A DNA stretch of 64,000 nt from an uncultured Gammaproteobacteria bacterium (GTDB taxonomy: Bacteria; Patescibacteriota; Patescibacteriia; UBA9934; CAZDDW01). Position 1 is the stretch's first letter, and each line of letters opens with the position of its first letter. Shown in pieces: positions 14,301 to 33,926 of the stretch. The DNA lies in NCBI GenBank assembly GCA_965231015.1, contig OZ246408.1, positions 793,908 to 857,907 on the forward strand, read 5' to 3'. The notes beneath the pieces were generated by a model. The model was given only the letters and a program-made list of their open reading frames with translations. It had not been told where the DNA came from and searched no databases. Position numbers and translations under genes: made by a program.

Positions 14301-14564
14301 AACGAGGATATTATACCGCATTACTCACCCCCTCTCAAGCGAGGAAATATAATATGACACATTCGAGACCGAGTGTTCTCCACTCCCCTTCAGCGAGGTT
14401 ATTTTTCCTGGAGGAATTTGTGAGCCGACCACAAGACAAACCAAAGACCAAGGATCAATGACCCTTGGTCGACGAAACACCATAACGAGGCTCGGATACC
14501 ATACTTACACTTTCAGCAGATCCAAGGCCGAGTGGTCCTCACAGGGAAATGATCGAGCGCCCCT

Positions 14565-15755
14565 CTACATCATCTTCTTCCGAATAAAGGCCGGGATTTC
14601 CAACTCATCGTCTTCTTCGTCAACTTTTGGTTTGCTTGAAGAGGTTGAAACAGGAACCTGCTCGCGCTCTGACACCTTTGGAGCCTTGGCCTTGATTCGG
14701 CGTGGCTCTTCCCGCTCTTCTTCCTGCACCGGGGCTTGTGGTGCCCATGATCCTTGGGACGGAATTTCCATAGCACCTTGAGCGGTGACAGAACGCCGTT
14801 CTCGCGAATCAAACCCGGTAGCCACTACAGTAATTCTAATGTTATCCTTCATGTCTTCATCAATGTTGGCTCCAAAAATAACCTTGGCGTCCTCATCAGC
14901 TGAACCTGTAATAACCTTGGCCGCTTCAGCCACCTCGTGCATGCCAAGATCTGACCCTCCGGTAACTGTAAAAAGAATACCCTTGGCACCATCAATAGAA
15001 AGTTCCAGCAGCGGACTGGCAATAGCCTGTTTAGCCGCTTCAATAGCCCGATTTTCCCCAGAAGCATTACCGATCCCCATCAAAGCTGAACCAGCGCTTT
15101 CCATAATGGCTTTAACATCAGCAAAGTCAACGTTGATGATTCCAGGAACCGTAATCAATTCAGAAATTCCCTGCACACCTTGTCGCAAAACATCATCCAC
15201 CACAGCGAACGCCTCCATCAGCGAGGTCTTTTTATCTACAATCTGCAAGACTCGATCATTGGGAATACTGATCACAGTATCTACATGTTGGATCAGATTA
15301 TCATATGCTTCATCAGCAATACGTTTTCGCTGTGCACCTTCAAAAGTGAACGGTTTAGTGACAACCGCTATGGTAAGTGCGCCAATATCACGAGCTAACT
15401 TAGCAATTTCTGTTACTGCCCCACTACCGGTTCCACCGCCAAGACCACAAGTCAAGAAAACCATGTCTGAATTACTCAACACTTCACGAACCTCATTTTG
15501 ACTCTCCTCAATAGCCCGACGTCCAATTTCCGGATTCATTCCTGCACCCAGGCCGCGGGTTACAGTTTTCCCAATGCTTACTTTTTTAGAGGCCGGATTT
15601 TGGTGCAAAGCCTGAACATCTGTGTTCACGGCCACGAACTCCACTCCGCGGATCTTTTCTTCGATCATGCGAGTAATAGCCGCACCACCACCCCCACCAA
15701 TGCCAACTACTTTGATCTTGGCAAAGGTCTCAATGTCTGGTTTTACTTCTGCCAT
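14565..15755 (-). CDS. ftsZ: Cell division GTPase FtsZ
   Basis: GGGTGSG tubulin signature; strong SD GGAGG upstream. Confidence 0.95.
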   Translation of the reverse strand: MAEVKPDIETFAKIKVVGIGGGGGAAITRMIEEKIRGVEFVAVNTDVQALHQNPASKKVSIGKTVTRGLGAGMNPEIGRRAIEESQNEVREVLSNSDMVFLTCGLGGGTGSGAVTEIAKLARDIGALTIAVVTKPFTFEGAQRKRIADEAYDNLIQHVDTVISIPNDRVLQIVDKKTSLMEAFAVVDDVLRQGVQGISELITVPGIINVDFADVKAIMESAGSALMGIGNASGENRAIEAAKQAIASPLLELSIDGAKGILFTVTGGSDLGMHEVAEAAKVITGSADEDAKVIFGANIDEDMKDNIRITVVATGFDSRERRSVTAQGAMEIPSQGSWAPQAPVQEEEREEPRRIKAKAPKVSEREQVPVSTSSSKPKVDEEDDELEIPAFIRKKMM

Positions 15756-15920
15756 ATTTTTATTCGTCCTCCTCGAACAATTATTGTGTTAGGAAGTATT
15801 CAACATGAACAAATATTTTATCCATGAATGAATTAAAATTTAACTGATTTCATGAACCACTTTAAGACATGTTTTTCCGGGTGTCAAGACAAAAAAAGTG
15901 TTCAAGAAATACACAGGGGA

Positions 15921-15980: not shown

Positions 15981-17237
15981 TTATGGCTTCAAGGATTTGA
16001 TTAATTTTACCAGACCTAAACCTAATTGGTTGACCACCTTGATCTTTCCAAACAGATTTCCAAGACCACCTCCGCGTACTCCACTAATACTGTGTCCCCA
16101 GACAACAAGTCCAATAGAGGTGCTGAAAGCTGGATCATTGGCATAATCAACCACAGAAGTAATTCCGATCGGAGTACCAAGTTCGGCTGGCAAGCGCAAT
16201 TGCCGCTTAGCTACATCAATCATGCTTGGCATCTTTGATCCTCCACCGGTTAAAACCACGCCGGCTGGCAACATCCCAGATCTGTCTATCTTCGCTAGTT
16301 CTTGGTCTACTTTTTCATAAATTTCCTCAATCCTGGCTTCAGCTATTTCAGACACAAATTTTGCAGATGTTTTTTCTCCTTCGCTTCCTCCAAACTCTTC
16401 TAAATAAATATCCTCTTTTCGAGAAACCTCACTCGGCAAAGCCACGGCATGCCGCAGTTTAACCTCTTCGGCCACATCAATCGAGGTACGCAAACCAATG
16501 GCAATGTCAGAGGTGATATGACCAGCTCCAACAGGAATAACGGCCGTATGCAAGACATCACCCTCCTCATAAACCACCACGCTGGTGGTACTGGAGCCGA
16601 TATTTACCACAGCTACTCCAAGTTCTTTTTGACGATTACTGACCACAGCTTCCGCACTAGCCAATACAGAAAAAACCAGGTCGTCAATCTCCAGCCCGGT
16701 TCGATAAACACACTTGGTTAGATTCTTAATTTGAGTGGTCAAACCTTGGATTATAAGAGCATCTACCTCAAGCCGGATTCCGTTCATACCCACAGGATCC
16801 TTAATCCCCCGCTGACCATCAACTGTAAAGCTTTTTGGAATCACGTGTAAAATCTCATAATTTGCTGGAGTAGCTACGGTTCGAGCCGCCTCAATAGCTC
16901 GTTCCACATCCTCTTCCTTAATTTCACCATCACTTCTAGCTACTCCTATCACTCCTTTACTTTCTTCGGTGATTATGTGACTTCCGGAAATACCAACCCA
17001 GGCTGTGTTCACCGGAAACCCAGTTAACCGTTCGGCCATTTCCAGAGCCTTGGAGGTACTAGCGGTAGCGTCTTCAATCGAGGTAATTGTTCCTTTATTA
17101 ACTCCCTCGGACGGCATTTCGACAGCCCCAATAATGTGCACCTGTTCTTTGTCGTTTTCTCCTGGCATGGATTGCCCAACAGCCACGCGAATAGCGTGGG
17201 AACCGATATCTAATCCAGCAATAATATTTTCTGCCAT
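15981..17237 (-). CDS. ftsA: Cell division protein FtsA (actin-like ATPase)
   Basis: N-terminal IIAGLDIGS, FtsA-type domain order, C-terminal amphipathic tail. Confidence 0.9.
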   Translation of the reverse strand: MAENIIAGLDIGSHAIRVAVGQSMPGENDKEQVHIIGAVEMPSEGVNKGTITSIEDATASTSKALEMAERLTGFPVNTAWVGISGSHIITEESKGVIGVARSDGEIKEEDVERAIEAARTVATPANYEILHVIPKSFTVDGQRGIKDPVGMNGIRLEVDALIIQGLTTQIKNLTKCVYRTGLEIDDLVFSVLASAEAVVSNRQKELGVAVVNIGSSTTSVVVYEEGDVLHTAVIPVGAGHITSDIAIGLRTSIDVAEEVKLRHAVALPSEVSRKEDIYLEEFGGSEGEKTSAKFVSEIAEARIEEIYEKVDQELAKIDRSGMLPAGVVLTGGGSKMPSMIDVAKRQLRLPAELGTPIGITSVVDYANDPAFSTSIGLVVWGHSISGVRGGGLGNLFGKIKVVNQLGLGLVKLIKSLKP

Positions 17238-17249: not shown

Positions 17250-17627
17250 TTAACTGATTTTAGATAAAAAATCCAGTAAATGAGGTCCTAAAATAAATAA
17301 CCCAATCACTGCCGCTAACACAGATGAAAGCAGGACTGTTCCGGCCATAATATCTTTAATTTCAGCCACAATAGGATTCAATCTTGGTTTAAATCCATCA
17401 GCCATGCGCTCAAATGTACTATTAATAAGCTCTAAGATTAAGACCATGCCCACTAGAAGCATGATTAAAATGTGCTCCCAAGTCTCAAGTGGCCAAACAA
17501 AAGCCAAGACAATCACCAGGGTGCCAATTATTACCTGAATCCGGAAGCTCTGCTCACTAACAAACACGCTCTTGATTCCTCTCAAGGCGTGAGAAAAACT
17601 CTTAAACAATTTTTTCACACTTATCAT
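17250..17627 (-). CDS. dgkA: Prokaryotic diacylglycerol/undecaprenol kinase family membrane protein
   Basis: Alignable to DgkA (ILELINSTFERMAD vs VEILNSAIEAVVD); 3 TM helices; ATGA overlap with ybeY. Confidence 0.8.
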   Translation of the reverse strand: MISVKKLFKSFSHALRGIKSVFVSEQSFRIQVIIGTLVIVLAFVWPLETWEHILIMLLVGMVLILELINSTFERMADGFKPRLNPIVAEIKDIMAGTVLLSSVLAAVIGLFILGPHLLDFLSKIS

Positions 17628-18049
17628 ATTTTTACTTTGGACAATATTACTTCCTGCAGAGCGAACATCTCTTCGGCTTCCTTTTTCTTAACATGATCAT
17701 AACCCATTAAATGCAGTACTCCGTGAACCAACAAGCGTAACACCTCTTCTCGAGCCCGCACACCCTGTTTTTTTGCCTGTTGTTGGGCAATCGGGTAGCA
17801 GATTAGCACCTCTCCAAGCACCCCGTCCTCGGCATGTGTGAATGACAAAACGTCGGTAGGCATATTTTTACCACGGTATGCCTGGTTTATCTTTTTGATT
17901 TCCGGCTTTGTTAAAAATGCTACAGATACCTGCCAATCATCGCTTTTGGGAAATAAATGCATTAAAATCCGACTAACCGAATTAAAGGAGCTTTTTGGTA
18001 CTCGTGCTCCTCCGCGGAGCTTTCCGTAATTCACATCAAACCTGATCAT
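17624..18049 (-). CDS. ybeY: rRNA maturation endoribonuclease YbeY
   Basis: Zinc motif HGVLHLMGYDH. Confidence 0.9.
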   Translation of the reverse strand: MIRFDVNYGKLRGGARVPKSSFNSVSRILMHLFPKSDDWQVSVAFLTKPEIKKINQAYRGKNMPTDVLSFTHAEDGVLGEVLICYPIAQQQAKKQGVRAREEVLRLLVHGVLHLMGYDHVKKKEAEEMFALQEVILSKVKI

Positions 18050-19095
18050 TACCTTATCACCATACTATTTAACATCATCTGAAAAGTTTGCAAATAATCA
18101 ACCGTGGTTTTATTACCAACGTTGTAGCTGATGATAAAAACCCGATCTCCATCATCAAGATAAGCGGTCAGCCTGTCCGGACTCATAATTCCGGACAACC
18201 CTTCTTTTGTTTCCACCATTAACAAATCGTCTACACTAGCCTGTAAGTCCTGGGCTAAAAACCAGTCTGTAATAGAGGTCTCTGTTGATTTGGCATTCAT
18301 TAAAACCTGGATTATCTCTCCTGATTCAGCCGTAAATACTACTTGCTCGGTGGGTCCGCCAATCGCACGCACGTTCCAAAGCGATGGATATGTCAGGGTA
18401 TAACTAAACGAAGCCTCATCAAACAAACGCACCAGTCCGGATTCAACCAGCGATGCCGGAGCGGTTCCGTTCGGGTTGTACCGATGAAAGACCTCGTTTC
18501 CGTCCAAGAAACCGTCTTCATCACTGTCCGGTAGGTTGGCCTTAGTTCCATACAACGTTTCCTCCACGTCAGTTAGTCCATCCGAATCTGAATCTGTTCC
18601 GGGAATTAAATCTTCAGCAAATGGACTGACTTGTTCATCCTCATCTTCAATCTCTTCAGGTTCATCCTCGTCCTCGATGTCAGAATCTTCATCATCAGCG
18701 GTTATATCATCAGTTACCGGGGGTTCATCGTCAGGTATTTCAATTTCCGGAACCGATTCTGGCTGTTGTAGGGTGTTTAAAACTATCAAAGCCGCGGCCA
18801 CAAACAAGGCAATCACAATTATCCCTATCACCACCAGCTTGACCGGGAAGCCTTTTTTCTTGGAAGGCTTGGAAGGCTTGGAAGGCTGAGAGGGCTTTGA
18901 AGGCTCTGGAGCTTTCGCAGCGGGAGGTGGCACCGGCTTTGGTTTTGCCGGCTCTTTTGGTTCAGTTCGTTTTACCGGCGTCTCATTGAGGGCAGTTCGT
19001 CGATACTTCTCTGGCATAGCCTGAATCAAGGGCTCGTTTTCTTTGGCCTTGTTTCCTGCTGGCTGTTCGATTTTTGTTTGGTCAGCCTTTGCCAT
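18049..19095 (-). CDS. Single-pass membrane protein: Pro/Lys-rich N-terminal cytoplasmic region, TM, acidic linker, two TSP3-type Ca-binding repeats (DSDSDGLTD, DSDEDGFLDGNE), conserved (F/N)xYxPNG motif, extra C-terminal domain
   Basis: Direct motif reading; paralog of the two upstream genes; shares 1 nt with the ybeY start. Confidence 0.7.
   Translation of the reverse strand: MAKADQTKIEQPAGNKAKENEPLIQAMPEKYRRTALNETPVKRTEPKEPAKPKPVPPPAAKAPEPSKPSQPSKPSKPSKKKGFPVKLVVIGIIVIALFVAAALIVLNTLQQPESVPEIEIPDDEPPVTDDITADDEDSDIEDEDEPEEIEDEDEQVSPFAEDLIPGTDSDSDGLTDVEETLYGTKANLPDSDEDGFLDGNEVFHRYNPNGTAPASLVESGLVRLFDEASFSYTLTYPSLWNVRAIGGPTEQVVFTAESGEIIQVLMNAKSTETSITDWFLAQDLQASVDDLLMVETKEGLSGIMSPDRLTAYLDDGDRVFIISYNVGNKTTVDYLQTFQMMLNSMVIR
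18859..18903. repeat. Intragenic 9-bp tandem repeat (CTTGGAAGG x3 perfect plus degenerate copies) encoding a PSKPS-rich tract
   Basis: Direct reading. Confidence 0.8.
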
Positions 19096-19097
19096 AA

Positions 19098-19787
19098 TTA
19101 TTCAGTTGTGGGCAAATCAGTTAATTTTCCTGATCCATTCGGATCATAACCGTTGGACACCTCATCACCATCAAGATACGTATCTCCGTCCGTGTCAGGA
19201 TCAAGCGGATCTGTCTTCCACGTTTTTACCTCCTCATAATCACTTAACCCGTCAGCATCAGTATCACTAATGCGCGGACTAGTTCCATATTCTCCGGTCT
19301 CTTGAACATCACTTAATCCGTCACGGTCGGTATCAAATGAGTCTGACGGTTCTGGGGCTGGCTCTGGAACTTCTTCTTCCTCCTCTTCCACCACTACATC
19401 ATCATCCATCATGGTGTCTTCTTCCATAATTTCATTTGGATCCACTTGAATATCATCTGCTGGAGCACGGTTCAAAAGAAAATATGAAATCAGCCCGGCC
19501 GCCACAATTACTAAAACCACTATAACCACAATTAAAATGATCTTTAAGGTACGCCCTGTACCCTTGAGCGCGGAAGGTGGGGCTGATTTTGCTTCAGTCA
19601 ACGGTGGAGTCTGCATGGGTGTTGCCGGAGCCCCGGGTGATGGTTTGGGTTTTTCCGAACTCATGGCCGGCATAGGACCACTCGTTGGAGCCTCAGGTCG
19701 CGGTGGCGGAGTCGGGGCTTCACCCCCCTTGTCCGTGTCCGCAAAAATATCTTCAGGCTCATTCTTTTTTTTCACGTCATCAAACAT
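19098..19787 (-). CDS. Single-pass membrane protein with Pro-rich N-terminus, acidic linker, three TSP3-type Ca-binding repeats and C-terminal NGYDPNGSGKL motif
   Basis: DTDRDGLSD, DTDADGLSDYEE, DPDTDGDTYLDGDE repeats. Confidence 0.7.
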   Translation of the reverse strand: MFDDVKKKNEPEDIFADTDKGGEAPTPPPRPEAPTSGPMPAMSSEKPKPSPGAPATPMQTPPLTEAKSAPPSALKGTGRTLKIILIVVIVVLVIVAAGLISYFLLNRAPADDIQVDPNEIMEEDTMMDDDVVVEEEEEEVPEPAPEPSDSFDTDRDGLSDVQETGEYGTSPRISDTDADGLSDYEEVKTWKTDPLDPDTDGDTYLDGDEVSNGYDPNGSGKLTDLPTTE

Positions 19788-19818
19788 AAAAAATATTCAA
19801 TTTACATTTTTACAATTT

Positions 19819-20808
19819 TCAATTTAAGGTACCTGAACCGACCGGGTCATATCCAGAGTTAACCTCATCACCGTCCGCATATCCATCCCCGTCTGTATCT
19901 ACGACAAGCGGAGAACTGCCATATACTTCTACCTCTTCCCCGTCAGTCAAGCCGTCACCATCGGTATCCGGATTGAACGGATCTGTATCAAGATCCAATT
20001 CTTCCCCATCCATTAAACCGTCTCCGTCAAGATCAGGATTAGTATCGTCCATGCCAAGTTCAGCCTCCCGGTCACTACTAACCCCGTCTAAATCAAGATC
20101 AGCTGGACCCACGCGATCGTAACAACCCTCAATCAATTCTTCCGGTAAAACATCACACAAACTTGGGTCACGCACCGTGATAGCGTTTTGGATCGTGATT
20201 TCAGCTTTGCAATAACTTTCATTGACACCGTTCTCTGCACACGTTCCTGCGCGCATGATGGTTGGTAAAATTTGAGCCTGGCAAGAGGCCACCCATTCCG
20301 GATCAGTTAATTCTTCCTCACACCGGGCGTAATCTTTTTCTGCCACAATAAGTGGTAATAAAATGTGATCATAACAGGCCTCACGAGTTTCTTTATCAGT
20401 AATTGCATCGCAGTCTTCCGGATTACCCTTTTCCCGAGCCACCGTTTCCACACAGGCCACAAATGATTCTCCTTCTAGCATTTCACACACAGCGAGTGCC
20501 GAGGTCTTGGAAGCCTCCCGAGTAATAGTTCGCGCCTCACAAGCGGCCGGATCTTTTGCTTCAGCACATTCAGACAACTGACCGGCTAATCGTTTTTCAG
20601 TTTCTATTAAAGTTTGTTCATTCATCTGTCGCTCGTCAATATTGTGCGAGATGTTTCGTACAATAACCACTGCCACAATGATAATAATGACAGCCAAAAG
20701 AACCGAGCCGATGATAATAGCAATGGTTCGAACCGAAAGACCTCCGGATGGTTCCTGTCCTTCACCTTCCGGAACATACTCGTAAAGTTGTGGTTCTTGT
20801 TCAGCCAT
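19819..20808 (-). CDS. Single-pass membrane protein with Cys-rich central region, four TSP3-type repeats and C-terminal [12 protein letters not shown] motif
   Basis: [36 protein letters not shown] repeats; about 18 Cys in the middle section. Confidence 0.7.
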
Positions 20809-20811
20809 ACT

Positions 20812-23800
20812 TTAGAACGGACAGTAATTCATTTCAATATTTGTTAGATTCACGGTTCCCGTGCCTGGGAAACTAATTCTAAACGGCACAGTAAACTCTT
20901 CGTCTGATTCCGGACACTCGAAACCGATTGGGAATAGCAACGGCTGACTATTCCCTTCGTTCATAGTTCCGCTTGAAGTTCCGGCATCAGTGGTATAAGT
21001 GATATGTTTTCCAATAATGGATTCCACAATAGCCTCGTACATATCACGTAAATCTTCGGCGGTTTCACTTGAATAAGCATATTCGATTCCATTGTTTGAA
21101 GGTGAACAATTATCCGCATCAGAAATATCATCCGGTTCATCTCCTGAACAAACATCCGGCATAATTCCGGCTCGTTCACAAACATCACTCGACCAGTGGG
21201 CCATATAACCCTTAAGACTGCTTGATCCGGTCAGGGCAGCAGTATACAAATCCAAAGTTCCGGTTTGCCCCTCACAATCGCGTTTCAAACGCCGAGCCCA
21301 TTCGTCTACCGTGTTTTCACCATCTCCGGCTGTCGGGCTACCATCACTTAATAATACCACCACCTGAACCGTGTCTTCCGGAGCCGGATTTTCCAGCTCA
21401 TTATAAACCGCCTCCAGACCCTCTTCCGGGTAAGTGCTTCCGGATGCGCTGTAAGCATTTACTGTATTGATAAGTGAATATTCATCTTCAGAGGTAGACA
21501 AATTATAATCGATATTACCGGTACCAGGGCTACTAAAGCTAGCTAATCCAATTTCAATGGTTCCATCTTCAAAGGAATCAAACAGTTCTCCAATAGCATC
21601 AATGGTCGCTTCTTTAGCAACATCGAGCCTAGAATCTGAACCATCGAGTAATTCATTCATACTGGTTGACAAATCCATAATAAAGAACACTTGAACGTAT
21701 GGTGGAGTGACTCCAGCGAATGACACATCTGCAGTTAAACTGGATCCAACCCGACAGGCTGGGAAGTACATTAAAGCGGTGTCAGGTGAATCACCGGAGC
21801 CGAAACTATACAGGTCAACTGAATCTGTTTTTAGTGAACCCTCTTCTTCGGCCTCAACCTGGACGGACACACTGGAGAGTGAAAACGGACAACCGGACGA
21901 ACAGTTATCATTACACTCAGGAGCTACACAGGTACCAAGAGAAGTGGTCGGGGGAAACGAGAACGGATTCTGTCCACAATTATCATCGTAGTCGGCAATT
22001 CCAGCGTTGACATCACACGGAACTCCGTTGAAATCTTTTAACTCATCATCAATTGTTCTGTACCCACCATTACAATAACCGGCCGGAGCACACTCGTATA
22101 CTTTATCAGCTATTCCATCCCCATCGTCATCACACAAATCATTGTTATCACACAAATCCTGACAATCTAGAAAACTGTCACAGGCGCCGGAAATATCTCG
22201 CCGGTCAGGGTCTTCATCTTTTAAAATACAATAATTGATTGGCATATCCGTGCCATCACAAAACTCACTTCCGTTAACCTGATCGTCACCACAGTAACCA
22301 CCGCTCATGGTTTGGTACTGACAACTGGCCGTACAGTAGTTACAGCTTCCGCCGTACGGCGCTTCACACGGCACGGCGTTCCCGGCACCCCAGTCACAGG
22401 CTTCAATTCCATCATAACGCTTACCGTCTCCACAAACATTAAACAAGCAGGAAGTAGTGCACTCATCATTGTTATCATCATTTCCATCATCACACTCCTC
22501 TGTTCCTTCTGTTACCCCGTTTCCACAATACCCAGTTCCAATACAGCTCTCACCACCAATTTCGTCCCAACCACCCACAAAATGGCTTGAGTCAGCCTCT
22601 GGCCAAAAACAACCTGTACCAGCAGCGATGTCAGAGTCACACACACGGGTACGCATAGTTTCAAATTCAAAAGTTGAGCATGTGCCATTGGCACATTCTC
22701 CGTCCGTCTGACACGGCTTACCAATTTCGTCTCCGGTATCACACAACTGTGAAGATTCACAGGCTTCATAACCACTGACATTACCACACGTTCCACCCTC
22801 ACAATCATCATCAATTTCACATGGCTCTCCCTCAAGTGACCCTGACGAACAAATCGCGCCGTCCCAAGTCTCTGACTCACCATCACACTCTTCTGATCCG
22901 TTTACTACTCCATCGCCACAGCTTGGTGGATCTCCGGCACAATTAAAGGCACAGCCCTCATCTGGGTCGTATGAATAAATTCCGTTTACGTACTGACAAC
23001 TATTGGCCACGGCCCAAGCACCACTCGTACGAAAATCTTCGTTGTAACCACAGTCACACACTTCACTTCCGGCCAAAGTTCCGTCTCCACAAAAAATTGC
23101 TCCATCAACGTCACAGTCGAGTCCACAATATCCGTACTGACCATTGAAAGCTCCATCATCACACTCTTCTCCATCATCAACAACTCCGTTTCCACAAAGG
23201 TATGGAGTACAAGACGAAGCAGAGTCAGCCGCTTCTTGATATGCGGAACAGTCTGCACTACCACTTACAGCACAGTTTCCACTGTAACAACAAGTGACGG
23301 TTTTTTGACCTTCTATATATGTACAGGTTCCTCCTCCGCAATCAATTGAGTCATTACACGGGTCACCGTTTGAACAAACCCCACTGGCACACTCACCATC
23401 TGCTCCACAGGTGGCAACTACGTCTCCGGCCGGATCACAAACGGTTCCATAATAACTTGATTCAACATCATTAAAACAGATATATACTTCACCCGGATCA
23501 CAATCCACGGTTTGTGTGTCTCCAATTTCACAGGTCTCATTTTCACCCACCACTCCATCGCCACACTCTTCGGAAAGACCAAGTTCGGTTCCATCACAGA
23601 AAAGAGAAGTAGTAAATCCATCCGGATTAGATTCAGACGCATTACCAACGGTAATTTCAGCCCAATCTGTGGTGTCCTGGTCTAGATCATAAGCCCAAGG
23701 AGCGCCATTATATTCTAAATCAACAAACAACTCGTAAGCTTCCCCGGCTATGGAGCGGAAGCCATAGACATGTGAGCCTTCATTGCAAACAAACTGCGAA

Positions 23801-26800
23801 GCGTCCCCGTTCCAACAACTGGTTTCATCATAGCCCTCCGGACAATCGGCTAAATTATTAAGTGGGTCCGTTGGCAAAGCGGCACCCAAATTATTTCCCA
23901 GCTGAGCCTGCCAACTTGGCCAAGCACTATAACTGCGGGAACGTAAAAAACTTCCCACTTGCAATTCCGGTACGGTCTGCACACAAGTTTCACCCCCCGG
24001 ACAGTTATCGTCCACAAAACAGGCCATGGTTTTTGTCACTGAACAACGGCTATTGGTGCTACCGTAGGTATCAATCTGTCCGTACATGCTGCGCAAATCT
24101 GACAAGCGTATAGTGTCACGCTGCAACATTTGTTTTTGTGCTCCACAAACCGCATCGGCTCCGTACTCAAAACACTCGGCGTCATAACTACATTCAGCTA
24201 ACTGTAAACCGTCCGTAGCATTATCAGTATCGATCGGGTTTGCGTAGGCGTCGGTTTCATAACAAAACTCATCATCAAGCAAAACATCATTGGCATTGAA
24301 TGCCCAGCTATCAAGCACTTGCTCAAACACTTCCAAAGTTTCATCCTCTGCCCCTTCATTGTAGGCAATGGCATAAATATTAGAGTAAATGTCCCCGGTC
24401 TGATTGGCCGCATTAACATAAACCGTACGACCGTCCTGAACCGCTTCGTAACCATCCACATCATCGGTTGAAGAATAAGATCCGTCAAAGTTGGCATCGT
24501 ACCAATCACCTGGCGAGTAATAATCCTCGTTGCCAGCAATCCTGACACCAACCGCATCGGTGTAATCATCCCCATCAATCATAAACAGTAACTCACGGAA
24601 TACTCCGGAAGTGGTTTGTGGATTTGGTGCCTCGACCACCCTCATGTTTGGTAGATCATCGCTCGTATCAGCCGCGTCTCCGGCGTCCCGACAATAATAG
24701 AAAGAGAAATTAGAATATGGGAACGGACTGCCAAGATCGGTTCGTACGGACGGACCAAAATCTCCAAGCCCCAGACCCTCAAAGGCGGTATCATATTCTT
24801 CAGTATCAGAAAAAGGGAACGTGCCCACTTGTGGCCATGGATTTTCACACAAGAAGACCATCTCTTCAACCGAACCACTGATTACCTCTCCGGTAGTGCT
24901 TGGATCGTTAAACGAGTCGGATGTCACTGTAGCAGAAGCCACAATATCCTCTTCACCGTTTTTAGATTCAGCAACCGCGTCATTGAGGTCAGTTGTCGCG
25001 GCCGGGTCAGATAAATTTAAAACTGATCCATCTCCGGTTATACCCCAGCTCCAGGTCCAATCATAATAACCGGCAATTGGCGTAATTTCTTCCCGAACGT
25101 TATTACGGATTGTATATGCCGCAGCTTCGAGGTCATGACTTTCAGCCGCTTCAGTAAAGAGTCCTGGACTTGAAGACTTGTCTTCCACTAACACGTCTTC
25201 AAGCTCACAAACCTCAGTTCCGGTCTTGAAACTTGAAGCTAAAAGTTGATTTGCCTCAAAACCATAAAGAGCGTCAGTGATAGTCGGTCGGATAGTGATG
25301 CCGTACTGTGTGGTTACTCCAATGTTGTAAGCAGCCTCGGTATTATCATCCTGCAAATCCTGATCACCTACCACCACCAACCGGTACAAAGAATTCTCTT
25401 CAAGTGGTTGTGAGTAGGTAAAAGTGACCTCGGTACTGCTTTCAGATAAATCATTAGACAGGGTGCCCTCCATGTAACAGACAACGGGATCCTGGGCATA
25501 CACCTCGCGACCGAACAAGCCAGCCACCTTATTAGCCACAAAACGCCAAGCCCGGACGTACCACGGACGATCACCTTCATGTAAAGCAACCAAACTTTCT
25601 TCATAACCGGACGGACAATCACCGGTTTCAAGATCAGCGTCAGGCTGTGCTTCACCGTCCACCAACACTCCTGAACCAAGATAAATTAAGAAAATGTTGT
25701 CCACGGTTTCATTACCAACCTGGACGCGGAAAGACTCAGTATCCATTAAGGAATCAAACTCAGCACTAACCGAGGCGTTACGACACACGTCTTCCCGAGC
25801 ATCTGGAGCAAAAGTGGCGGTTGGTCGATCAGCACAACAACCACCAAAACCACAACCGATCGTAGTATAAGTCGCGACGCCACAATCAAGATCTTCCTCA
25901 CAAGAACAATTGACACCAACTTCAGCTTCTCCGGTAGCTCCGGTGCCGGTTTGACTGTCCGTTCCTTCAGCTCGCAGATCCGTCATGATTGGATTTTCAT
26001 CCAAGACAACCGACGCTTCGATCGCCCCCTCAGATATTTCAGCCACCTGGAACGGATCAATTAAACCGTCCCCGCCGGCCAAAGCGGCTTCACATTCTTC
26101 ACCTGTTCCATAATTGCCATCACCACAAAAAGATGGAGTTGAGTATTCGTGATTTGATCCCTCAAAAAGACCGTCATCAGAACAACCTTCATCAGCTGGA
26201 TCACACTCACCGCTCTCATTCAAACACCGCGAACTGCAACCATCTCCATTCGTTCCATTTCCATCATCACAGTCTTCCCCGTCCTCCCGAGTGCCGTTAC
26301 CACAGACAGCTGTAATTTCGGTTGCATCAAGCGAACCCTCATTTAAACAAATATTGGAACAACCGTCTCCGGAACTATTATTTCCATCATCACACTCCTC
26401 ACCCCCTATAGCATCATTGTGCAAAATAATTCCGTCTCCACAAACTGTGCCAGCGTAACCTGAACCCTCGTTTGTACAAACACTGGAACATCCGTCTAAA
26501 TCATCATTGTTGCCGTCATCACATTCTTCAAAACCATCCATTGATCCGTTTCCGCAAGTTCCGCCATCAGCCACAGCGGCAGTTCCCTCGGTCGTACAGG
26601 TAGCACTACAACCGTCTCCGTCCAGTGGTAAACCAGGGCCGTCATCACAGTCTTCACCAAATTCTTCTACTCCGTTACCGCAAACCGATACTCCGTAATC
26701 ACTTCCCTCGTTCAAACAAAGGCTGGAACATCCGTCCGGAAGTTCACGAGTGGTATCAAGGTTTGCTGGGGTAAAGAAAGCAATCTCGTAATTGTCTGGA

Positions 26801-29800
26801 ACCGTATTATCAATCTCCCAGTTCCAAGCATAGTCATACGCGTCAAGCCGTTGACCGGATGGTGAACACTCGTCCGGTCCGCCGTAAGCAGTGGCTTCGT
26901 AGGCTTGTTGAGCCCCGATTCGATCCAATACTTCACGTTCAGGATTTACTTCAACACGTTCAATACCACACGGAGCAGAATCGGCTTTAGTTTTAAAAAT
27001 CCACTCTTCATCTCCGGAAAGCCCGGTACCACTAAGACTCAACACCCCTTCTACCTGATCAGTTGTTGATGGATCATCACCGGAAATCCGCACCAAATAG
27101 TAAGTATCTTCTTCCAAATCACTTGGCGGACTCAAAGAGATTGACCAATCCCCGGCGTTGTAATTCAGTGTTCCGCCCACCACTTCCGTAGTTCCCAAAT
27201 TACAAAGCGCGTCGGAACACTCATACAGCCGAACATTGCCGTTGAAGCTGGACGAATCCATATCCAAATTAAAGGTCGCGCCAACCACAGCGTTGACACA
27301 AGCCTCTTCACACTCAGGCCATCGGTCTTCTACCCGAGGATCTTCAAAATTGACCTGAATGTCAGAGCTATCTCGTAAATTTTCATCCGTGATCTCGGCA
27401 GTGAGCTCAACCACATGACCGGGTTCAGTTTCAGATTCTGCCTCAACATTATAGGTATCAAAATCAAGCGAGACTAAATCAATAATGTCATCCCAGTCAG
27501 TGTTACCTGTATGCTCAGCATACCAGGTCCACACATCTCCCGGGGTATACAACACCTGACATCCTCCGGCTCCGATTGCGGAAGCATCAAAGTCGCTGTT
27601 TTCTTCAACGAAGGTGTAACTCTTTTCCGGAGGCAACAATAGCACACTCTCTATTTCACAGTCTGAGGTATCAGTCCTGGTCTGAAACTGCCACTCGTAA
27701 TCCGTTTCTAAGGGTTCTCCATCAGGACTTGTAATGCCTCCGATTCCACCAACGAGCGTCACCTGGTACCAAGTACTTGGATCAAAGACGGTACCGGCCG
27801 GCGATGAAATCCACTGGAAAGTGGTGTCAAACTTATCATCAAATTCTCCGTCAACAGTTTCTAAATCAGAACAAGGATCATCCGGATCCAGCCCGACACA
27901 TTTTTCTACAATGACGGTGCTCGTGGTGATACTTGCAAGCTCCACTCCGGGATCAGTTTCAAAAGAACCCTGCACCATTGAATTTACACAAACTTCCTCA
28001 CCGTTCGGCCAGGCTGTGTATGGCGTTGGGCTAATCCAATCATCAGAACATTCAACAATGAGTTGTGGAGCGTCCGGAATTTCTCCGGTAGAAAAACGCC
28101 AAAGGTATTCTGATTCCGGGATAGTTTCACTTGGACAAGTGGCTCGACACGCTCCATCATCACAACAAGTTTCACCTTGTGCGCACTCCGCTCCCCCATC
28201 AAGACAACTAGCCACTTCAAAATTAATCGTGTTTGAGGCAGTACCACCATTATCATAAAGTGTGACCGGTCCGGTGGTAGCTCCGGAAGGCACTTCTACT
28301 CGAACCTGTTCGCCATCACCTCCCCAATAATCAATGTTGGTTACGGCTACCCCATCATAAAAATCAACCGAGCCCTGCACGCTTCCAAACCGTTCACCAT
28401 AAAGATCAACCAACAGGCCCTCCGGACCGTTAGTCGGATCAATGGCACAAATGCTTGGCCCCGGACTGCCACTTGTTACCGTAAACTCGGCCTCATTACT
28501 TTCAGCACCATCATCACGCTCAATCCAAATTGCGGCTGAGCCTCCATCAGCCCATTCCGGTACCTTCATTATAATATTGTCATCCGCCCACCAATTGCTG
28601 GCACAGGCGTCTGGAAAATCAACATCAGCAACATCTGTTGCTCCGGTGGAATCCCTAAACCAAACAATGCCACCCGGCGGATCGTCGTCAAAATTTTCTC
28701 CGTAAATTGTTACGTATTGTCCAATAGGTCCGGTGTCTCCATAGTCTTCACAGGCACCAAAATTACATGGCGTATCATCACCTATTGTACAACCGGTCAC
28801 TGTTGGATCATTGGAACAATAATTTGGTACGTCCAAAGTACAGGTTCCAGCACAATCACTGTCAGCACTACAAGCTAAATCCGTGTTGTCGGCACAATAA
28901 TCAAGACCGGAATCAACATAACTGATGACCGGAGTCTCTTGTTCCGTCTCTGAGCTAACCGTAAACTGAACCGTGTTTGAACCATTCCCTTCTACAAAAA
29001 CCTGAACCTGATAATTACGAGCTGATACTTGAGGAACCGGGAAGCTAATACTTTCATCATTCCAATTTTGATACTCACTTGGTTCGTATCCGGTATTTCC
29101 GTAAAGAAGGTAAAGATTGTCCTCGGTCGTACCGAAATTTTTACCCGTGGCTACCACAATATCGTCCGGCAAACCACTTTCCGGATTAACGTCACACATA
29201 CTTGGTCGCACAGTACCATCTTCCGTGAAATCAATAATGACTGGGCCACGGTCATAATCATCGGTTCGGTCAGACAAAGGACCGTCAGCTTCAGCCGGCT
29301 CAGTCACAATTATGATCGGCCCGTCAACAAACCCGTTTGGTACCTCTACCACCACCTGAGTGCTGGTCCACGGATCAGCACAGTCAGCCACTAATGCCTG
29401 TACGTCATCATCATCTCCTTCTTCATCACCGTCCCCGTCCGTATCCGCTCCTAAAAACCAAACTTCTCCTTCTGCGTCATTAAAATATTCTCCTGAAATT
29501 GTAATGTAGTTTCCTGAGGTACCCTGGGTTGGTGAAACATAAGTTATTTCCGGATACCCAACACAAGTTCCCTCCTCACAAATTCCACTGGCACAATCAC
29601 CGTTTTCCGTACAAGATTCACCATCACAAGATAGACAATCATCTCCACCACAATCTACTCCGCTTTCGTCTTCGTCCTGCACACCGTTGGTACAGTGAGC
29701 AACCAAAGCGCTCACTGTAATGGAATCCGATAAAGTAGAGCGGCCGGAACAGTCATAGGCACGCGTACTCAAATTGTGTGAACCAAGAGAGGGCTCCGTC

Positions 29801-30798
29801 CAGTTGGCACTGTAGAGATCTGGCTCGCCAAGATTCAAAACCACTCCGTTGTCTTCAAATGAACTGTCAACGTAAAACTTAACCCGGTTGATTCCACCGT
29901 CGTCTGTGGCAATTGATTGCATAAGTGCCAGTTCTCCTACCGGAACTGAACCCCCATCATCCGGGTACGTCATCTCAACGGATGGGTCAGAGGTATCAAT
30001 TAAGTCCCCGGTGGTAAAAGTTGATTGACAGTCTTCACCCGGTGAACCACAGGTAATTAGCTCGCCACCGGTTTCTTTTAGACCGGCTCCGATTTGAACC
30101 GTGTAAGTAGTATTGGCATCAAAACAAAATTCAGCAGGGTCTTCCGGACAAACCGCTGACGGGGTAAACATAACCTCATCATCTTCAGTGTCAAAAGTTC
30201 CATCCACCGGATCACCAAGCGGATCCTGAATCTGGATGTTGCTGGCAATCGTAGAGGTGTCAACAGAATTATTAAATAAAATAGTGACCACTACATTTTT
30301 ATTTGGTAGATCACCGGTAGCACAACCATAACTCTCAATAATAAATTCATCATAAATCGGTGGGTTATCACCCGGATCCCAAGGGTCATCCCCCTCCTCC
30401 CCGGTTCCGGTGCCACCACCTACCGCGTCTACTAAAGAAGAAATAACAAATGTGGTAATGGCCCAGGCAGACATGATGATAACCATGCCAATTACAGCAT
30501 TCACCAACACCTTTTTAGCTTTACTGATTTTTTCCGCCTGACCACCTGAAGTCATCCACAAAAATCCGCCATAAATAATTAGGCCAAGCAAAACCACGCC
30601 GGCAAAACTGAGAGCGGTACGGATGAGTCGCGCCACTACAACCCGAATGTCAGCCTGAGCGAACCCGGCCTGTTCGGCAAACTGCTGAAACGCTGTTTCA
30701 TCAACCGGACCTTGAGCCAAGGCCTCGGTTCCAACAACCAAACCAAAGAGCGTAAGCCCGATGATCATGATCCAATAATTTTGGCGGATATATTTCAT
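20812..30798 (-). CDS. Giant (3328 aa) cell-surface protein: N-terminal pilin-like hydrophobic domain, Ig-like/IPT-TIG domains, myxococcus-type Cys-rich repeats (CGNG..ECDDGN), C-terminal von Willebrand factor A domain
   Basis: Uninterrupted 9987-nt ORF; IPT-like [22 protein letters not shown]; at least 4 CxxGxxExGExCDDGN repeats; vWA MIDAS DLSTSM...LLSDGSPT. Confidence 0.85.
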
Positions 30799-30799
30799 T

Positions 30800-32734
30800 T
30801 TATTCAGGTATTACACTACAGTCCCCTCCTCGACTTACCTCAGCGTCGCCACGACAACAACTCGGACTTGAGCTATCCACGTTACAATCCGGAGGAATCA
30901 CATCTTGAGCAGGATTAGCACTGCCCGGTCCATGCGCTGGGTAATAACAAATCTGGTACGAGCTTTTAATTCCGTGACTCAACCATGGTTCATAGTACCA
31001 AGTCAGCGTGTCAGTTGATTCTAAGAACAAGCCGTGGTCAATCACAACACGAGTGGCAGTTGGTTCAGCATCAGCCTGCGGTGGAGTTTCAGAATATCCC
31101 TCGTACAAGTTTTCCTTTTCAATTCGGTATGACAATTCATGGGTCGTAAAGTCACTTGATACCGGAACCAATCCAATGTTGTTGCTGTTCAAACTAGAAC
31201 TCATGAGCGTGACACCCGGCCCGGGTGGAGATACCCCGTCATCCTCAATAAACGTGGCAGATATTTCTGCGTCCAGTTCTACTTCTTCAGCCTCAAGATC
31301 AGGTCGCAATTCATAAATCGACGGGATCACATCATTGACTTCGTTCGTAGTTTCAAAGGCCCAAACATAGTTGTCCGTGGTTGGTCCATCAGCTGTACCG
31401 TCCAGGTTGGTAGAGGCTCCAACGTCCGGATTGTGGTTATTGTTTCCTCCATCAAGAGAATTGCCGGTCACATCCACCGCACCATCGTACGGATAGCCCA
31501 CAGCTTCCGGGGCACTATCCCCGACTGTCGCCGCAGTTACCGTAGTGTTGATCACAGACTCGCCCGGCAAACAGTAAATAGTGTCGCCACACGGATCCTC
31601 AGCACAAGCATCATCTGAAACAAACTCGATTGTCCGATATCCGTTCGAAATCGTCCAAGTTCCGGTCACGGTTCCTGAATTAAACGGATCCTGAAATTCA
31701 GCCAAAACATTTGAAAAGAAACTGTCTACGCCGTTATAGGTGCCGCTCACGGCAGTCGGATCCATAGCCTCGTTAAAATTGATCTGAATCACCACGTTGC
31801 GGTCTTTTTCTGTAGCGTGTCCAGGATAAACACTCTGCACGTATGGAGGCTCCAGATCAACCTCTGTCGAAACTTCAAAGGTCCATTCATAACCACCGTT
31901 AAAATTACCACTAAAAGCCTCGGTGCCATCTTCTTTTAAGATACCGTCCTGCAAACTAACCGTGTAGTTCATCGAATCAATCGCACTACCAAGGAGCTCA
32001 ACCGGATCAAAAACCCAGCTTAGATTATCTGCGGTTCGGTTCACAAGCACAGCTTCACTTGTTAAAGCCGATCCCTCCCCTTCGGAATTTGGATAAATTA
32101 AAACTAAACCATCGTTTAAAAAGTACGTATCATCAGTTTCGTCACCCGGAGTTCCGTTGTCGGAATATACACCATTGGTTAGTGAATCTAAGTTAATAGG
32201 TTCTTTAAAAGTGATGATTACCTTAGTGTTCCGTGGGATGTCATTGGCATTGCGTAGTGGCCAATGGTCTTGAATGATTCCCGCACCAAGCGGACCGGAA
32301 AGCGGTTCCACCCCGACCGGTGGTTCTGAACCAAACCCGCCAAAAATTCCTCCTTGACCGAGTAAGGCATTGAGAATAAATGAAACTATGCTATACGAAG
32401 CAAGTACAATAAAAGCGCCAATCACAGCATTGCGCATGATGAGCTTGGCCTTCTTGACCTTTTCAGCGTCTCCGGCTGAAGTCATCCAAAGGTAACCCGC
32501 GTACACAATGAGAGATAAAAATATTATGCCAATCAGACCGATGGCATAACGAATAATAATGGCCACAACCACACGAATATCAGTTTCAGGAAGACCGGCC
32601 GCTTGTCCAACCATTTCAAGTTGATCCTCTTGAGCCATGGCTTCCGGAGCAAAATAAAACAATAATCCCGCCACCACTACGACAAGGGTGGCGATGCAAT
32701 ATGTTCGCCATCTATTTTGCACTGCTTCAAGCAT
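30800..32734 (-). CDS. 644-aa surface protein sharing the pilin-like N-terminal domain with the giant protein, Ig-like beta-rich body, Cys-rich C-terminus containing RGD
   Basis: N-terminus DIRVVVAxIIRxAI...YxGxLWMTSxGxxEKxKKAK alignable to the giant protein; 1-nt spacing to the giant gene. Confidence 0.8.
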   Translation of the reverse strand: MLEAVQNRWRTYCIATLVVVVAGLLFYFAPEAMAQEDQLEMVGQAAGLPETDIRVVVAIIIRYAIGLIGIIFLSLIVYAGYLWMTSAGDAEKVKKAKLIMRNAVIGAFIVLASYSIVSFILNALLGQGGIFGGFGSEPPVGVEPLSGPLGAGIIQDHWPLRNANDIPRNTKVIITFKEPINLDSLTNGVYSDNGTPGDETDDTYFLNDGLVLIYPNSEGEGSALTSEAVLVNRTADNLSWVFDPVELLGSAIDSMNYTVSLQDGILKEDGTEAFSGNFNGGYEWTFEVSTEVDLEPPYVQSVYPGHATEKDRNVVIQINFNEAMDPTAVSGTYNGVDSFFSNVLAEFQDPFNSGTVTGTWTISNGYRTIEFVSDDACAEDPCGDTIYCLPGESVINTTVTAATVGDSAPEAVGYPYDGAVDVTGNSLDGGNNNHNPDVGASTNLDGTADGPTTDNYVWAFETTNEVNDVIPSIYELRPDLEAEEVELDAEISATFIEDDGVSPPGPGVTLMSSSLNSNNIGLVPVSSDFTTHELSYRIEKENLYEGYSETPPQADAEPTATRVVIDHGLFLESTDTLTWYYEPWLSHGIKSSYQICYYPAHGPGSANPAQDVIPPDCNVDSSSPSCCRGDAEVSRGGDCSVIPE

Positions 32735-33021
32735 GAAGCGTTCTTAATTTACTAGCTTATTATACCTTAATTTAGTTGAGAAGCGAAGTGTGGATAAGGC
32801 TAAAGCAAGTGAGTTGAATCCAAACCATATATATTTAAGTCTAGACTTTTGCAACACGGTTTCAAAAAAGATACGGTCGGCCACTTTTTGCAACCACTTT
32901 AAGCATAAACTGGTTCCACTTTAGGGCCGGCCGGACCCTTTTTGGAACCACATAGAAATTACACAATCGTCTGAAATCGGTGTGTAATCAGATCCCTTGC
33001 CCTAATTTTAGCCAATTAGTA

Positions 33022-33051
33022 TTGACAAAAAGGACTAAATAATATCATAAT
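33022..33051 (+). promoter_or_regulatory. Sigma70-like promoter (TTGACA-N18-CATAAT) upstream of the 33115 gene
   Basis: -35 at 33022..33027, -10 at 33046..33051. Confidence 0.4.
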
Positions 33052-33114
33052 ATGTCTTCACTTCACTGATCTAGGTGGAGCGCACACTGACAACTTCCAG
33101 TTAGGGAAAAGGAA

Positions 33115-33405
33115 ATGGACTACCTGTTCTACGTCTTCACCTGTCTCTTTGTGATTCTAGGCACCACAGCAAAGGTCTGGGCAGATGTCTGGGGCGAAGG
33201 TGCCGAAGGTCAACACGGGGGTAATCTCGTAATTGTGCTCGGAGTTTCAATGGCTCTCACTGGCACTATCAACGGCGTGGTTCAAACGAAGACCGAGTAC
33301 ATCATCGCCTTCCCAATCTGTGTCGTCGCTCTTATGTTGAGCCTGGTGATCAACGTCGTCATCAAGAAAATGCGAACCCTTCACCTCAAGAGGAAAGCAT
33401 CATGA
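33115..33405 (+). CDS. Small membrane protein (96 aa) in a GC-rich island
   Basis: Intact ORF, 3 hydrophobic segments, local GC clearly above the window average. Confidence 0.5.
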   Translation: MDYLFYVFTCLFVILGTTAKVWADVWGEGAEGQHGGNLVIVLGVSMALTGTINGVVQTKTEYIIAFPICVVALMLSLVINVVIKKMRTLHLKRKAS

Positions 33406-33697
33406 CCAAGGCAGTCCGCTTCTACTGGGAAGAGATGGGATTCGGCCTTGTCCCCTGAGGCATCGGGCTGAGCCTGATGTTCGCTCTCACAGTGGTCATG
33501 CAGCTGGAGCTCGGACCTGTACGGCCCCTTTCGCCATCGCCTACGTGGCCGTTCTGATGTGGAGCGTCTTCGACACGGGTATCCTGTGTTCGGTCTTCCA
33601 TGATCGTGATCAAAAAGCCACCATGCTCATCACCGCCGCTCTTTTTCTCACCTTCATGTTCTTTTACACCTGGTCGCTGCACAGCCTCCCGTCGTAA
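33402..33697 (+). pseudogene. GC-rich stretch with a fragmented reading frame: an 18-codon ORF (ATGA-coupled to the upstream gene) ends at an in-frame TGA at 33456; a downstream membrane-protein-like frame (...APFAIAYVAVLMWSVFDTGILCSVFHDRDQKATMLITAALFLTFMFFYTWSLHSLPS*) lies in another frame
   Basis: Hand translation of all three frames; no single intact ORF of 60 aa or more. Confidence 0.3.
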
Positions 33698-33833
33698 GAC
33701 CAGGCGAGATCCGCCGCCCTCACCCCCCCCCGATCAACCACAAGATCGTCTCGGGTGTAGGCGGTCTTGTTTTTATTCTCCTATTCGATCGAATTAAAAA
33801 CCACTTGCTTGCTTCGTAAAATTAACAAGTACC

Positions 33834-33870
33834 ACTTTTTCGTACCTACGAACAAACACCGTACCCCCCC
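33834..33870. repeat. Palindromic-element family copy: ACTTTTTCGTACCTACGAACAAACA + CCGTACCCCCCC (25/25 identical core to 9966..9990)
   Basis: Direct reading. Confidence 0.75.
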
Positions 33871-33880
33871 TCCTTAACCA

Positions 33881-33904
33881 AAAAGACCGTGCTATTGCAC
33901 GGTC
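33881..33904 (-). terminator. Rho-independent terminator for yqeY (GACCGTGC-tatt-GCACGGTC with T4 on the minus strand)
   Basis: 8-bp perfect stem. Confidence 0.55.
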
Positions 33905-33926
33905 CTAAAACTTTATACTTTATACT

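Follow-up and report, generated by a model that had tools for sequence, protein, structure and literature searches.

A clade-wide block of five predicted surface-protein genes directly ahead of ybeY, dgkA, ftsA and ftsZ in Candidatus Uhrbacteria

Introduction

Why do five genes for very acidic surface proteins stand directly ahead of ybeY, dgkA, ftsA and ftsZ in Uhrbacteria, and what might their products do there? We examined this question in a 64,000-nucleotide stretch of DNA (positions 793,908 to 857,907 of contig OZ246408.1, assembly GCA_965231015.1; "the 64-kb window" below), which comes from a Candidatus Uhrbacteria bacterium within the CPR (candidate phyla radiation)/Patescibacteria (NCBI phylum Candidatus Uhriibacteriota). 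An initial annotation had described the five genes as a surface-protein operon joined to the division genes, and had proposed an adhesion or attachment apparatus. No Uhrbacteria have been cultivated, and envelope building, partner attachment and division with a stripped-down divisome are poorly understood in most CPR bacteria. The block matters in this setting, as it forms a core, well-delimited, lineage-wide set of candidates, in which two surface proteins are anchored by hairpins and three others are bitopic and carry conserved cytoplasmic peptides. On balance we lean towards the view that it is a core Uhrbacteria operon for a five-protein, calcium-dependent surface complex, co-transcribed with ybeY-dgkA-ftsA and probably ftsZ, with attachment as its likeliest role.

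Gene order and predicted transcription of the block

Coordinates are positions in the 64-kb window, and the surface genes, all on the minus strand, are numbered 1 to 5 in the order of transcription. Gene 1 (30800..32734) is an open reading frame (ORF) for a 644-aa surface protein and gene 2 (20812..30798) an ORF for a giant of 3328 aa. The ORFs of genes 3 (19819..20808), 4 (19098..19787) and 5 (18049..19095) encode bitopic proteins of 329, 229 and 348 aa. On the same strand follow ybeY (17624..18049; PF02130, 121 bits), dgkA of the prokaryotic diacylglycerol/undecaprenol kinase family (17250..17627; PF01219, 93.9 bits), ftsA (15981..17237) and ftsZ (14565..15755). The identical ftsA gene on locus L004 has SHS2_FTSA and FtsA matches in Pfam; ftsZ was assigned from its translation and from orthologues with Tubulin and FtsZ_C matches.

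The ORF coordinates leave gaps of 1, 3, 31 and 2 nt between successive surface genes. The gene 5 stop overlaps the ybeY start by 1 nt, ybeY and dgkA overlap by 4 nt, and dgkA is separated from ftsA by 12 nt. The tight run of five minus-strand genes into ybeY-dgkA-ftsA-ftsZ that had been annotated initially was exact in its coordinates, with gaps of -1 to 31 nt, but it does not extend to ftsZ, which lies 225 nt from ftsA. A consensus scan placed a promoter-like site inside this last gap, at 15859-15887. The same scan gave convincing same-strand terminator-like hairpins only 5' of gene 1 and 3' of ftsZ. The upstream one is a strong hairpin 3' of yqeY (33883..33906, minus strand) and the downstream one a strong hairpin of 11 pairs with a T-run (14446..14470, minus strand); they mark the two boundaries of the predicted unit. 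A TATAAT is found at 32759-32764, 25 nt 5' of the gene 1 ATG. The sequence thus predicts a single transcription unit of ~18.3 kb, inside which ftsZ may have a promoter of its own, and the tight spacing together with the terminator positions suggests that the surface genes would be co-expressed with the division genes.

Upstream of ftsA we found dgkA, ybeY and the five surface genes instead of the canonical division and cell wall (dcw) order (ftsQ, murC, ddl). A chance ORF or chance arrangement was ruled out by the uninterrupted 9,987-nt ORF and by the retention of the arrangement in 80 other genomes. Horizontal transfer of the block was rejected as well, since its GC content is only slightly above that of the flanks and its position is fixed across the clade.

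Conservation across Uhrbacteria

For the synteny sample, one genome per GTDB species was scanned with the 348-aa family alignment of gene 5; at least 324 species had a relative, and the scan returned 80 loci. The window proteins were mapped onto these 80 loci by tblastn, and the denominators given here are the loci long enough to test. The giant was found upstream of the gene 5 homologue in 60/60 loci and ybeY downstream of it in 79/79, with dgkA in 77/79, ftsA in 76/76, ftsZ in 62/62 and nrdR in 54/58. Strand and order of these genes were identical throughout the mapped loci. Synteny across relatives had been named as the check on the initial annotation, and wherever a locus could be tested the genes had indeed stayed together in the relatives; scattering or absence was not seen there. 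Contigs fetched independently via gene 1 or hairpin relatives showed the identical layout from lepB-hisS to ftsZ-nrdR, and in the closest named relative the cluster was intact, despite an apparent mismatch of its locus tags (ABIG32_00775 versus ABIG32_01465). An outgroup sought with the fn3-type gene 5 homologue of a divergent subclade gave only more proteins labelled Uhrbacteria or Patescibacteria, in identical context. In two of the 79 loci (L023 and L071) dgkA was absent from its usual slot, the ybeY-ftsA adjacency being retained.

The spacing was conserved along with the order. Gene 5 and ybeY overlap in 74% of the loci and lie no more than 20 nt apart in 95%, ybeY and dgkA overlap in 73%, and the dgkA-ftsA gap has a median of 19 nt. 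The ftsA-ftsZ gap had a median of 171 nt and was never below 49 nt. Identity to the window proteins had a median of ~33% for the giant and for the C-domain of gene 5, 39% for YbeY, 47.5% for DgkA and 62-66% for FtsA and FtsZ. As the surface genes evolve at about the rate of ybeY, we regard them as core genes and not as hypervariable accessory genes.

These observations indicate that, throughout the Uhrbacteria clade, the block is a fixed trait passed on vertically, in a region that is collinear on both sides. The physical coupling to division genes, which had first been singled out as unusual, is borne out in its tight packing and its clade-wide fixation; but precisely because the block is fixed throughout the clade and its flanks are collinear too, the adjacency by itself shows no functional link to division.

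Gene 1 and the giant share a hairpin-headed N-terminus

Gene 1 and the giant were found to be paralogues whose similarity covers the N-terminal ~300 residues (31% identity, E 1e-28), the shared unit being a signal peptide, a two-helix hairpin and the first Big_5 domain. Both signal peptides end in a cleavage site of the AxA/Q type (..EAMAQ/ED in gene 1, ..EALAQ/GP in the giant; the slash marks the cut). The VirB2/type IV secretion system (T4SS)-pilin-like hairpin of gene 1 spans aa 56-123 (32366..32569, minus strand). Its residues R62, G69, Y78, G80 and G88 are invariant, and these include a membrane-embedded Arg within the first helix. That of the giant spans aa 60-118 (30445..30621, minus strand) and matches the T4SS_pilin family (PF18895) at 29.6 bits against a cut-off of 26.6; with the N-terminal piece of the giant alone, the score was 32.1 bits. 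The two hairpins are 44% identical, and in both a K-rich basic loop lies between the helices. The pilin-like anchor of the initial annotation is therefore present, but it heads both gene 1 and the giant, as paralogues over ~300 residues.

Behind the hairpin, the gene 1 product carries three to four Ig-like domains of the Big_5 type and a Cys-rich C-terminus. In Pfam it matched Big_5 at 39.1 bits and PF18895 at 24.6 bits, just below the cut-off; most of the listed homologues carry a precomputed PF18895 match. These homologues form 483 clusters, full length at ~40% identity, and nearly all are labelled Uhrbacteria or Patescibacteria. The AlphaFold2 model of gene 1 (pLDDT 79.6) has helices at 53-84 and 90-128, followed by three to four Ig-like sandwiches.

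The giant is a 354-kDa protein with an isoelectric point of about 4, 162 Cys, and 641 Asp+Glu versus 103 Lys+Arg. From the N-terminus, it consists of the signal peptide, the hairpin, Big_5, Big_7, several IPT/TIG domains, a further Big_5, Cys-rich acidic repeats (DUF4215/TIGR02232), ~800 aa without a family match, a further Cys-rich region, a VWA domain and a C-terminal ~100 aa. The giant had been annotated from the start with vWA, IPT and Cys-rich repeats, and Pfam agreed, showing vWA, IPT/TIG, Big_5, Big_7, DUF4215 and T4SS_pilin. The distal VWA domain (aa ~3037-3220; 21139..21690, minus strand) matched PF00092 (36.6-40.3 bits) and PF13519. Its metal ion-dependent adhesion site (MIDAS) motif DLSTS lies at aa 3042-3046 (nt 21661-21675), and of 38 aligned homologues, 35 retain the pattern Dx(S/T)x(S/T). 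The fold match and the intact MIDAS make this a candidate metal-dependent binding domain.

In relatives, the giant orthologues range from 2263 to 4978 aa. They keep the N-terminal hairpin and the Ig/TIG stalk, and their distal domains differ by lineage: the 4978-aa giant of locus L088 (8091-23027) has three Laminin_G_3 domains and LVIVD, that of L060 (204-8132; at least 2642 aa) has a CarboxypepD_reg-like end, and that of L091 (1-8230; 3412 aa) again has a VWA. Such variation on a conserved N-terminal stalk is expected of a ligand-binding end.

We also looked for the signals that usually accompany large surface proteins. The giant ends in ...IEMNYCPF and gene 1 in ...GDCSVIPE, with no LPXTG sorting signal. 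No RTX or hemolysin-type calcium-binding Pfam family was present in nine overlapping pieces of the giant, a type I secretion (T1SS) signal was not found on it, and Pfam and NCBIfam scans of the block proteins gave no SLH or other lattice- or wall-binding module. Sequence searches of the PDB with the C-terminal 528 aa of the giant and with the gene 1 family profile returned zero matches.

The hairpin module at large

The hairpin of gene 1 was used as a 95-aa query (window 32345-32629) in a full HMMER search against representative proteins. We observed matches to 24,516 proteins at E<=1e-3 and to 5,670 at E<=1e-10. The best 150 include stand-alone, pilin-sized proteins (95-190 aa) at ~50% identity, proteins of 2-16 tandem hairpins, gene 1 orthologues of ~600-900 aa, and at least 22 giants. 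Among the tandem chains, P0370 (1775 aa) had 16 matched stretches and P0374 (1147 aa) had 11. Two of the matches that were not stand-alone were checked for context, and both lay inside the surface cluster linked to ybeY-dgkA-ftsA. In NCBIfam, the hairpin also matched the Mbov_0395 pilin-like family.

Many Patescibacteria have VirB2-like pilins and arrays of 2-11 pilin genes, and in Southlakia they are essential (PMC12102498). In the same survey of Patescibacteria T4SS, proteins matching PF18895 are treated as VirB2-like pilins and pilin arrays are noted, but neither fusions of this kind nor an ftsA context are mentioned (PMC12102498). The likeness of the block proteins to these pilins (PF18895/TrbC) lies in the N-terminal signal peptide and the two helices with a short basic loop, and in the giant also in a PF18895 score above the cut-off. 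As in the pilin arrays, two hairpin genes are adjacent here, with ~50% identity to stand-alone CPR pilins. Size, however, sets them apart: a mature T4SS pilin has ~70-130 aa, whereas these proteins have 644 and 3328 aa, the hairpin heading ectodomains of ~500 and ~3200 residues, and their position is fixed beside ybeY-dgkA-ftsA. The block was also not near virB4 or virB6 within the scanned part of the window: Pfam scans of 20 larger other ORFs gave no VirB4, VirB6 or coupling protein, the smaller ORFs being unscanned. No stand-alone pilin gene lies within the block. A VirB2-like hairpin that is usually counted as a small "pilin" thus heads thousands of proteins, including giants of up to ~5000 aa, and such hairpin-headed large proteins affect the counting of pilin arrays in Patescibacteria.

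The three small bitopic proteins

Genes 3, 4 and 5 encode proteins with a single transmembrane (TM) segment and an N-in layout, and TSP3 calcium-binding repeats are common to all three. They had been described initially as three paralogous single-TM TSP3 proteins; the TSP3 module and the N-in single-TM layout held up, but a paralogy beyond these did not.

Gene 3, with its topology read from the sequence, has a 26-aa cytoplasmic tail, a TM segment preceded by the motif PWK, a 12-Cys region and TSP3 repeats (TSP3_bac, PF18884, 57 bits). PWK recurs across the loci, with variants in some orthologues. A homologue of its mid-domain was found by tblastn in 33 of the 80 loci. Gene 4 begins with the cytoplasmic motif MFDDVKKKNEPEDIFAD (nt 19737-19787), followed by a Pro-rich tail, the TM segment, an acidic linker and TSP3 repeats (TSP3_bac, 33.2 bits versus a cut-off of 25). 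Located right at the start of the protein and reading MFD..(E)PED(I/M)F, the motif is present in most of the 80 loci, several orthologues having a variant or lacking it.

Gene 5 carries the cytoplasmic motif PLIQAMPEKYRRTAL (aa 22-36, nt 18988-19032), a Pro-rich tail, the TM segment (aa 84-108), an acidic linker, TSP3-like repeats and a C-terminal PsbP/Mog1/LpqN-like domain (nt 18052-18453). Across the 80 loci the tail motif reads PxI(F/H)V(M/I)P(E/K)x(Y/F)..GA, with M27 and R32 invariant and with variants in some orthologues. Gene 5 itself had no Pfam match at E<=0.01; its TSP3-like stretch aligns to gene 4 (E 6e-10), and several of its homologues carry PF18884. The homologues form ~500 clusters, almost all from metagenome-assembled genomes labelled Candidatus Uhrbacteria or Patescibacteria.

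Neither Pfam nor NCBIfam holds a family model for the cytoplasmic motifs of genes 3-5, and the three proteins had zero similarity in these databases to PilN, FtsN, FtsQ/DivIB, FtsL, FtsB or ZipA. A search of the rest of the 64-kb window for additional hairpin, TSP3 or PsbP modules found none.

Comparison with described systems

The modules of the block are of known kinds. In the Pfam, NCBIfam and PDB searches, no characterised family above threshold covered its products, and we found no published description of the cluster in the literature on pilins, surface proteins, S-layers and adhesins of Uhrbacteria, CPR and Patescibacteria. A giant-gene preprint concerns Omnitrophota. In the initial annotation, too, the combination was not recognised as a described system. 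What we did not find described is the union of VirB2-hairpin paralogues including a giant, three TSP3 bitopic proteins with conserved cytoplasmic peptides and an invariant translational coupling to ybeY-dgkA-ftsA.

CglB and CglD are adhesins of the gliding focal adhesions of Myxococcus xanthus, and MtsD is a cohesion protein of the same organism. The set of modules is alike, with a MIDAS VWA, TSP3 repeats and Cys-rich acidic repeats (TIGR02232) on surface proteins presumed to work as a complex. Unlike these diderm lipoproteins, the block proteins are TM-anchored and of a monoderm type, and no gliding machinery is found here. Membership of CglD (35 bits versus a cut-off of 400) and MtsD (16 versus 800) was rejected, the matches being at the level of repeats. 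Membership of FliL and PknB was rejected likewise, as the NCBIfam matches were sub-threshold and at repeat level.

LapA, SiiE, BapA and Ebh belong to a class of giant Ig-repeat calcium-binding adhesins, and RrgA and GBS104 are VWA tip adhesins of sortase pili. In PilY1, a VWA domain reportedly serves as an adhesive or mechanosensing pilus end. The giant resembles the LapA class in its very large, acidic, Ig-like stalk with a distal binding domain, but it has a Sec signal and an N-terminal membrane hairpin anchor in place of RTX repeats, a T1SS signal or LPXTG. The block genes are core and syntenic, not accessory.

PilN docks onto PilM, and FtsN onto FtsA, via a short cytoplasmic N-terminal peptide. 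Like PilN and FtsN, the products of genes 3-5 are bitopic and N-in, bear a short conserved hydrophobic-Pro motif on the cytoplasmic side and are encoded in one string with an FtsA-family gene, and the tail motif is presumably similar to the INLLP motif of PilN. They differ in having no detectable homology, a motif ~25 residues from the N-terminus, and unrelated ectodomains (TSP3, PsbP-like, fn3).

Discussion

How might the five proteins work together? Sec would export gene 1 and the giant, and their VirB2-like hairpins would keep them in the membrane; alternatively, the two may pass from the membrane into a fibre of the VirB2 type. The gene 1 product would present a short row of Ig-like domains, and the giant a long, acidic, disulfide-rich stalk of Ig/IPT and Cys-rich units carrying a lineage-specific distal binding domain, here the VWA. 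The N-in products of genes 3-5 would place their TSP3 repeats on the outward side of the membrane and expose conserved short peptides to the cytoplasm, forming with the gene 1 product the membrane base of the structure. Through its fusion to the division genes in one operon, the block may then provide every cell division with a fresh set of the structure. Counted in favour of this reading are the surface signatures (signal peptide and hairpin, Ig/IPT, VWA, TSP3, the many Cys and the low isoelectric point) and the conservation of the cytoplasmic motifs and hairpin residues far beyond the needs of a passive anchor. The likeliest role of the block is attachment, be it to a host cell or to a substrate: the distal domain is of a binding type and changes from lineage to lineage, and the base is conserved. 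The domains do fit the surface, calcium-binding, adhesin-like set on which the adhesion or attachment apparatus of the initial annotation had been based. What the sequences show is the gene structure, the domain content, the topology signals, the paralogy and the conserved order and spacing; complex formation, adhesion and co-transcription are what we infer from them, and the episymbiotic lifestyle suggested in the initial annotation would be a further inference.

Several observations weigh against this reading. All 80 loci were retrieved via the gene 5 family and all lie within Uhrbacteria, so that genomes without the block fall outside the sample. YbeY is a ribosome-maturation nuclease with no evident link to attachment or division, and since its gene stands in the same string, shared transcription need not mean shared function. 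The genes topA-dprA-pth-der-lytR ... lepB-hisS ... nrdR-htrA-pyk are collinear clade-wide, and the ftsA adjacency could therefore be historical. Foldseek matches of the gene 1 model had low TM-scores (0.13-0.15) and are generic strings of tandem Ig domains.

The strongest competitor builds on the second and third of these points. The surface genes would stand beside the division genes through a neutral accident, preserved in genomes that are small and seldom rearranged, and the two sets would share a transcript but no function. We consider this a serious possibility, if not the probable one. It draws on the collinear housekeeping genes on both sides, the functionally unrelated ybeY, the ftsZ-nrdR adjacency that is nearly as conserved, and the ftsA-ftsZ gap that always leaves room for a promoter. 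A frozen accident sits less well with the 100% retention of the order, with overlapping stop and start codons, despite protein identities of ~33%, and this retention holds too in subclades with remodelled gene sizes and domains.

The Foldseek result bears on another explanation, a structural envelope coat, S-layer-like or a sheath, that is built at the septum; this would account for co-expression with FtsA and FtsZ. The top match of the gene 1 model was the Geobacillus S-layer protein SbsC (4uic, E 9e-10), and the Haloferax volcanii S-layer protein (7ptp) was also matched. The block belongs to the core genome in a single copy, its conservation is close to that of ybeY, its five proteins are very acidic and predicted to bind calcium, and Big_5-type Ig domains and acidity are shared with SbsA/SbsC and the Haloferax S-layer glycoprotein. 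The anchor in the block is a TM hairpin, however, no SLH, wall-anchoring or lattice module was found, and the fold matches are the generic ones with the low TM-scores noted above. As a distal MIDAS VWA and lineage-specific domain swapping suit ligand binding better than lattice formation, we regard a coat as unlikely.

In yet another explanation, gene 1 and the giant would be pilin-domain fusions, tip or minor subunits of a VirB2-type pilus from a Patescibacteria T4SS, displaying adhesion domains. The PF18895 and Mbov_0395 matches, the ~50% identity to stand-alone 95-190-aa pilin-like proteins, the invariant hairpin residues with the membrane-embedded Arg and the wide occurrence of VirB2-like pilins and arrays in Patescibacteria, essential in Southlakia (PMC12102498), are all consistent with it. 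We nevertheless think it quite unlikely, given the lack of VirB4, VirB6 and a coupling protein among the 20 larger ORFs scanned (the smaller ones being unscanned), the lack of a stand-alone pilin gene in the block, and a size 5-25 times that of a pilin.

The cytoplasmic tails allow a further proposal, in which genes 3-5 are divisome adaptors whose peptides dock onto FtsA and tie the surface structure to the division ring. Conserved short motifs in N-in tails across at least 80 species would agree with this, as would the overlap geometry by which gene 5 appears translationally coupled to the ybeY-dgkA-ftsA string. Against it stand the intervening ybeY and dgkA and the lack of Pfam or NCBIfam similarity to PilN, FtsN, FtsQ/L/B and ZipA, and we think such adaptors quite improbable. 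Its fullest form would combine the docking with the preferred attachment complex: the peptides of genes 3-5 would dock onto FtsA/FtsZ and couple the hairpin-anchored giant adhesin to the division ring, so coordinating attachment and division plane in an episymbiont. This we hold to be very doubtful, although, if true, it would amount to a previously unknown class of divisome partners in a reduced-genome episymbiont.

Other features of the window

The window is otherwise ordinary core chromosome, with topA, dprA, pth, der, lytR, lepB, hisS, rpsU and yqeY upstream of the block, nrdR, htrA and pyk downstream of it, and parAB and aminoacyl-tRNA synthetases further on. In the 1.15-kb gap upstream of the operon (32735-33926), a membrane ORF of 96 aa is encoded on the plus strand (33115-33405), together with a promoter-like site close to the consensus at 33022-33051 (11/12) and a plus-strand terminator-like hairpin at 33740-33770. 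The relatives examined showed no such gap: in them, the distance from gene 1 to yqeY, rpsU or an unannotated ORF is within ~80-160 nt. What had looked in relatives like a conserved gene of ~80 aa upstream of gene 1 proved to be rpsU. Rfam, applied to the window at the gathering threshold and to the gap by E-value, gave tRNAs and chance-level matches only.

The signal peptidase I gene lepB (36115-36720) is a conserved upstream neighbour, in the order lepB-hisS-(rpsU)-(yqeY)-cluster, also in L001, L003, L088 and L089. The signal peptides of both hairpin proteins are long and carry AxA sites, and the proximity of lepB may be coincidence. Between lepB and lytR, a 565-aa Ser/Thr-kinase-like protein with long acidic insertions is encoded on the minus strand (36814-38511); other genes occupy this place in L001 and L003.

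The nrdR ORF (13812-14321, minus strand) probably starts at an internal Met before CPVC (about 14300), as a promoter-like site at 14338-14310 (11/12) would otherwise fall inside it. Two minus-strand ORFs, of 485 aa (7535-8992) and 441 aa (60166-61491), matched no Pfam family at E<=0.01. A third, of 459 aa (4797-6176, minus strand), encodes bacterial SH3 domains and a CAP (cysteine-rich secretory protein family) domain.

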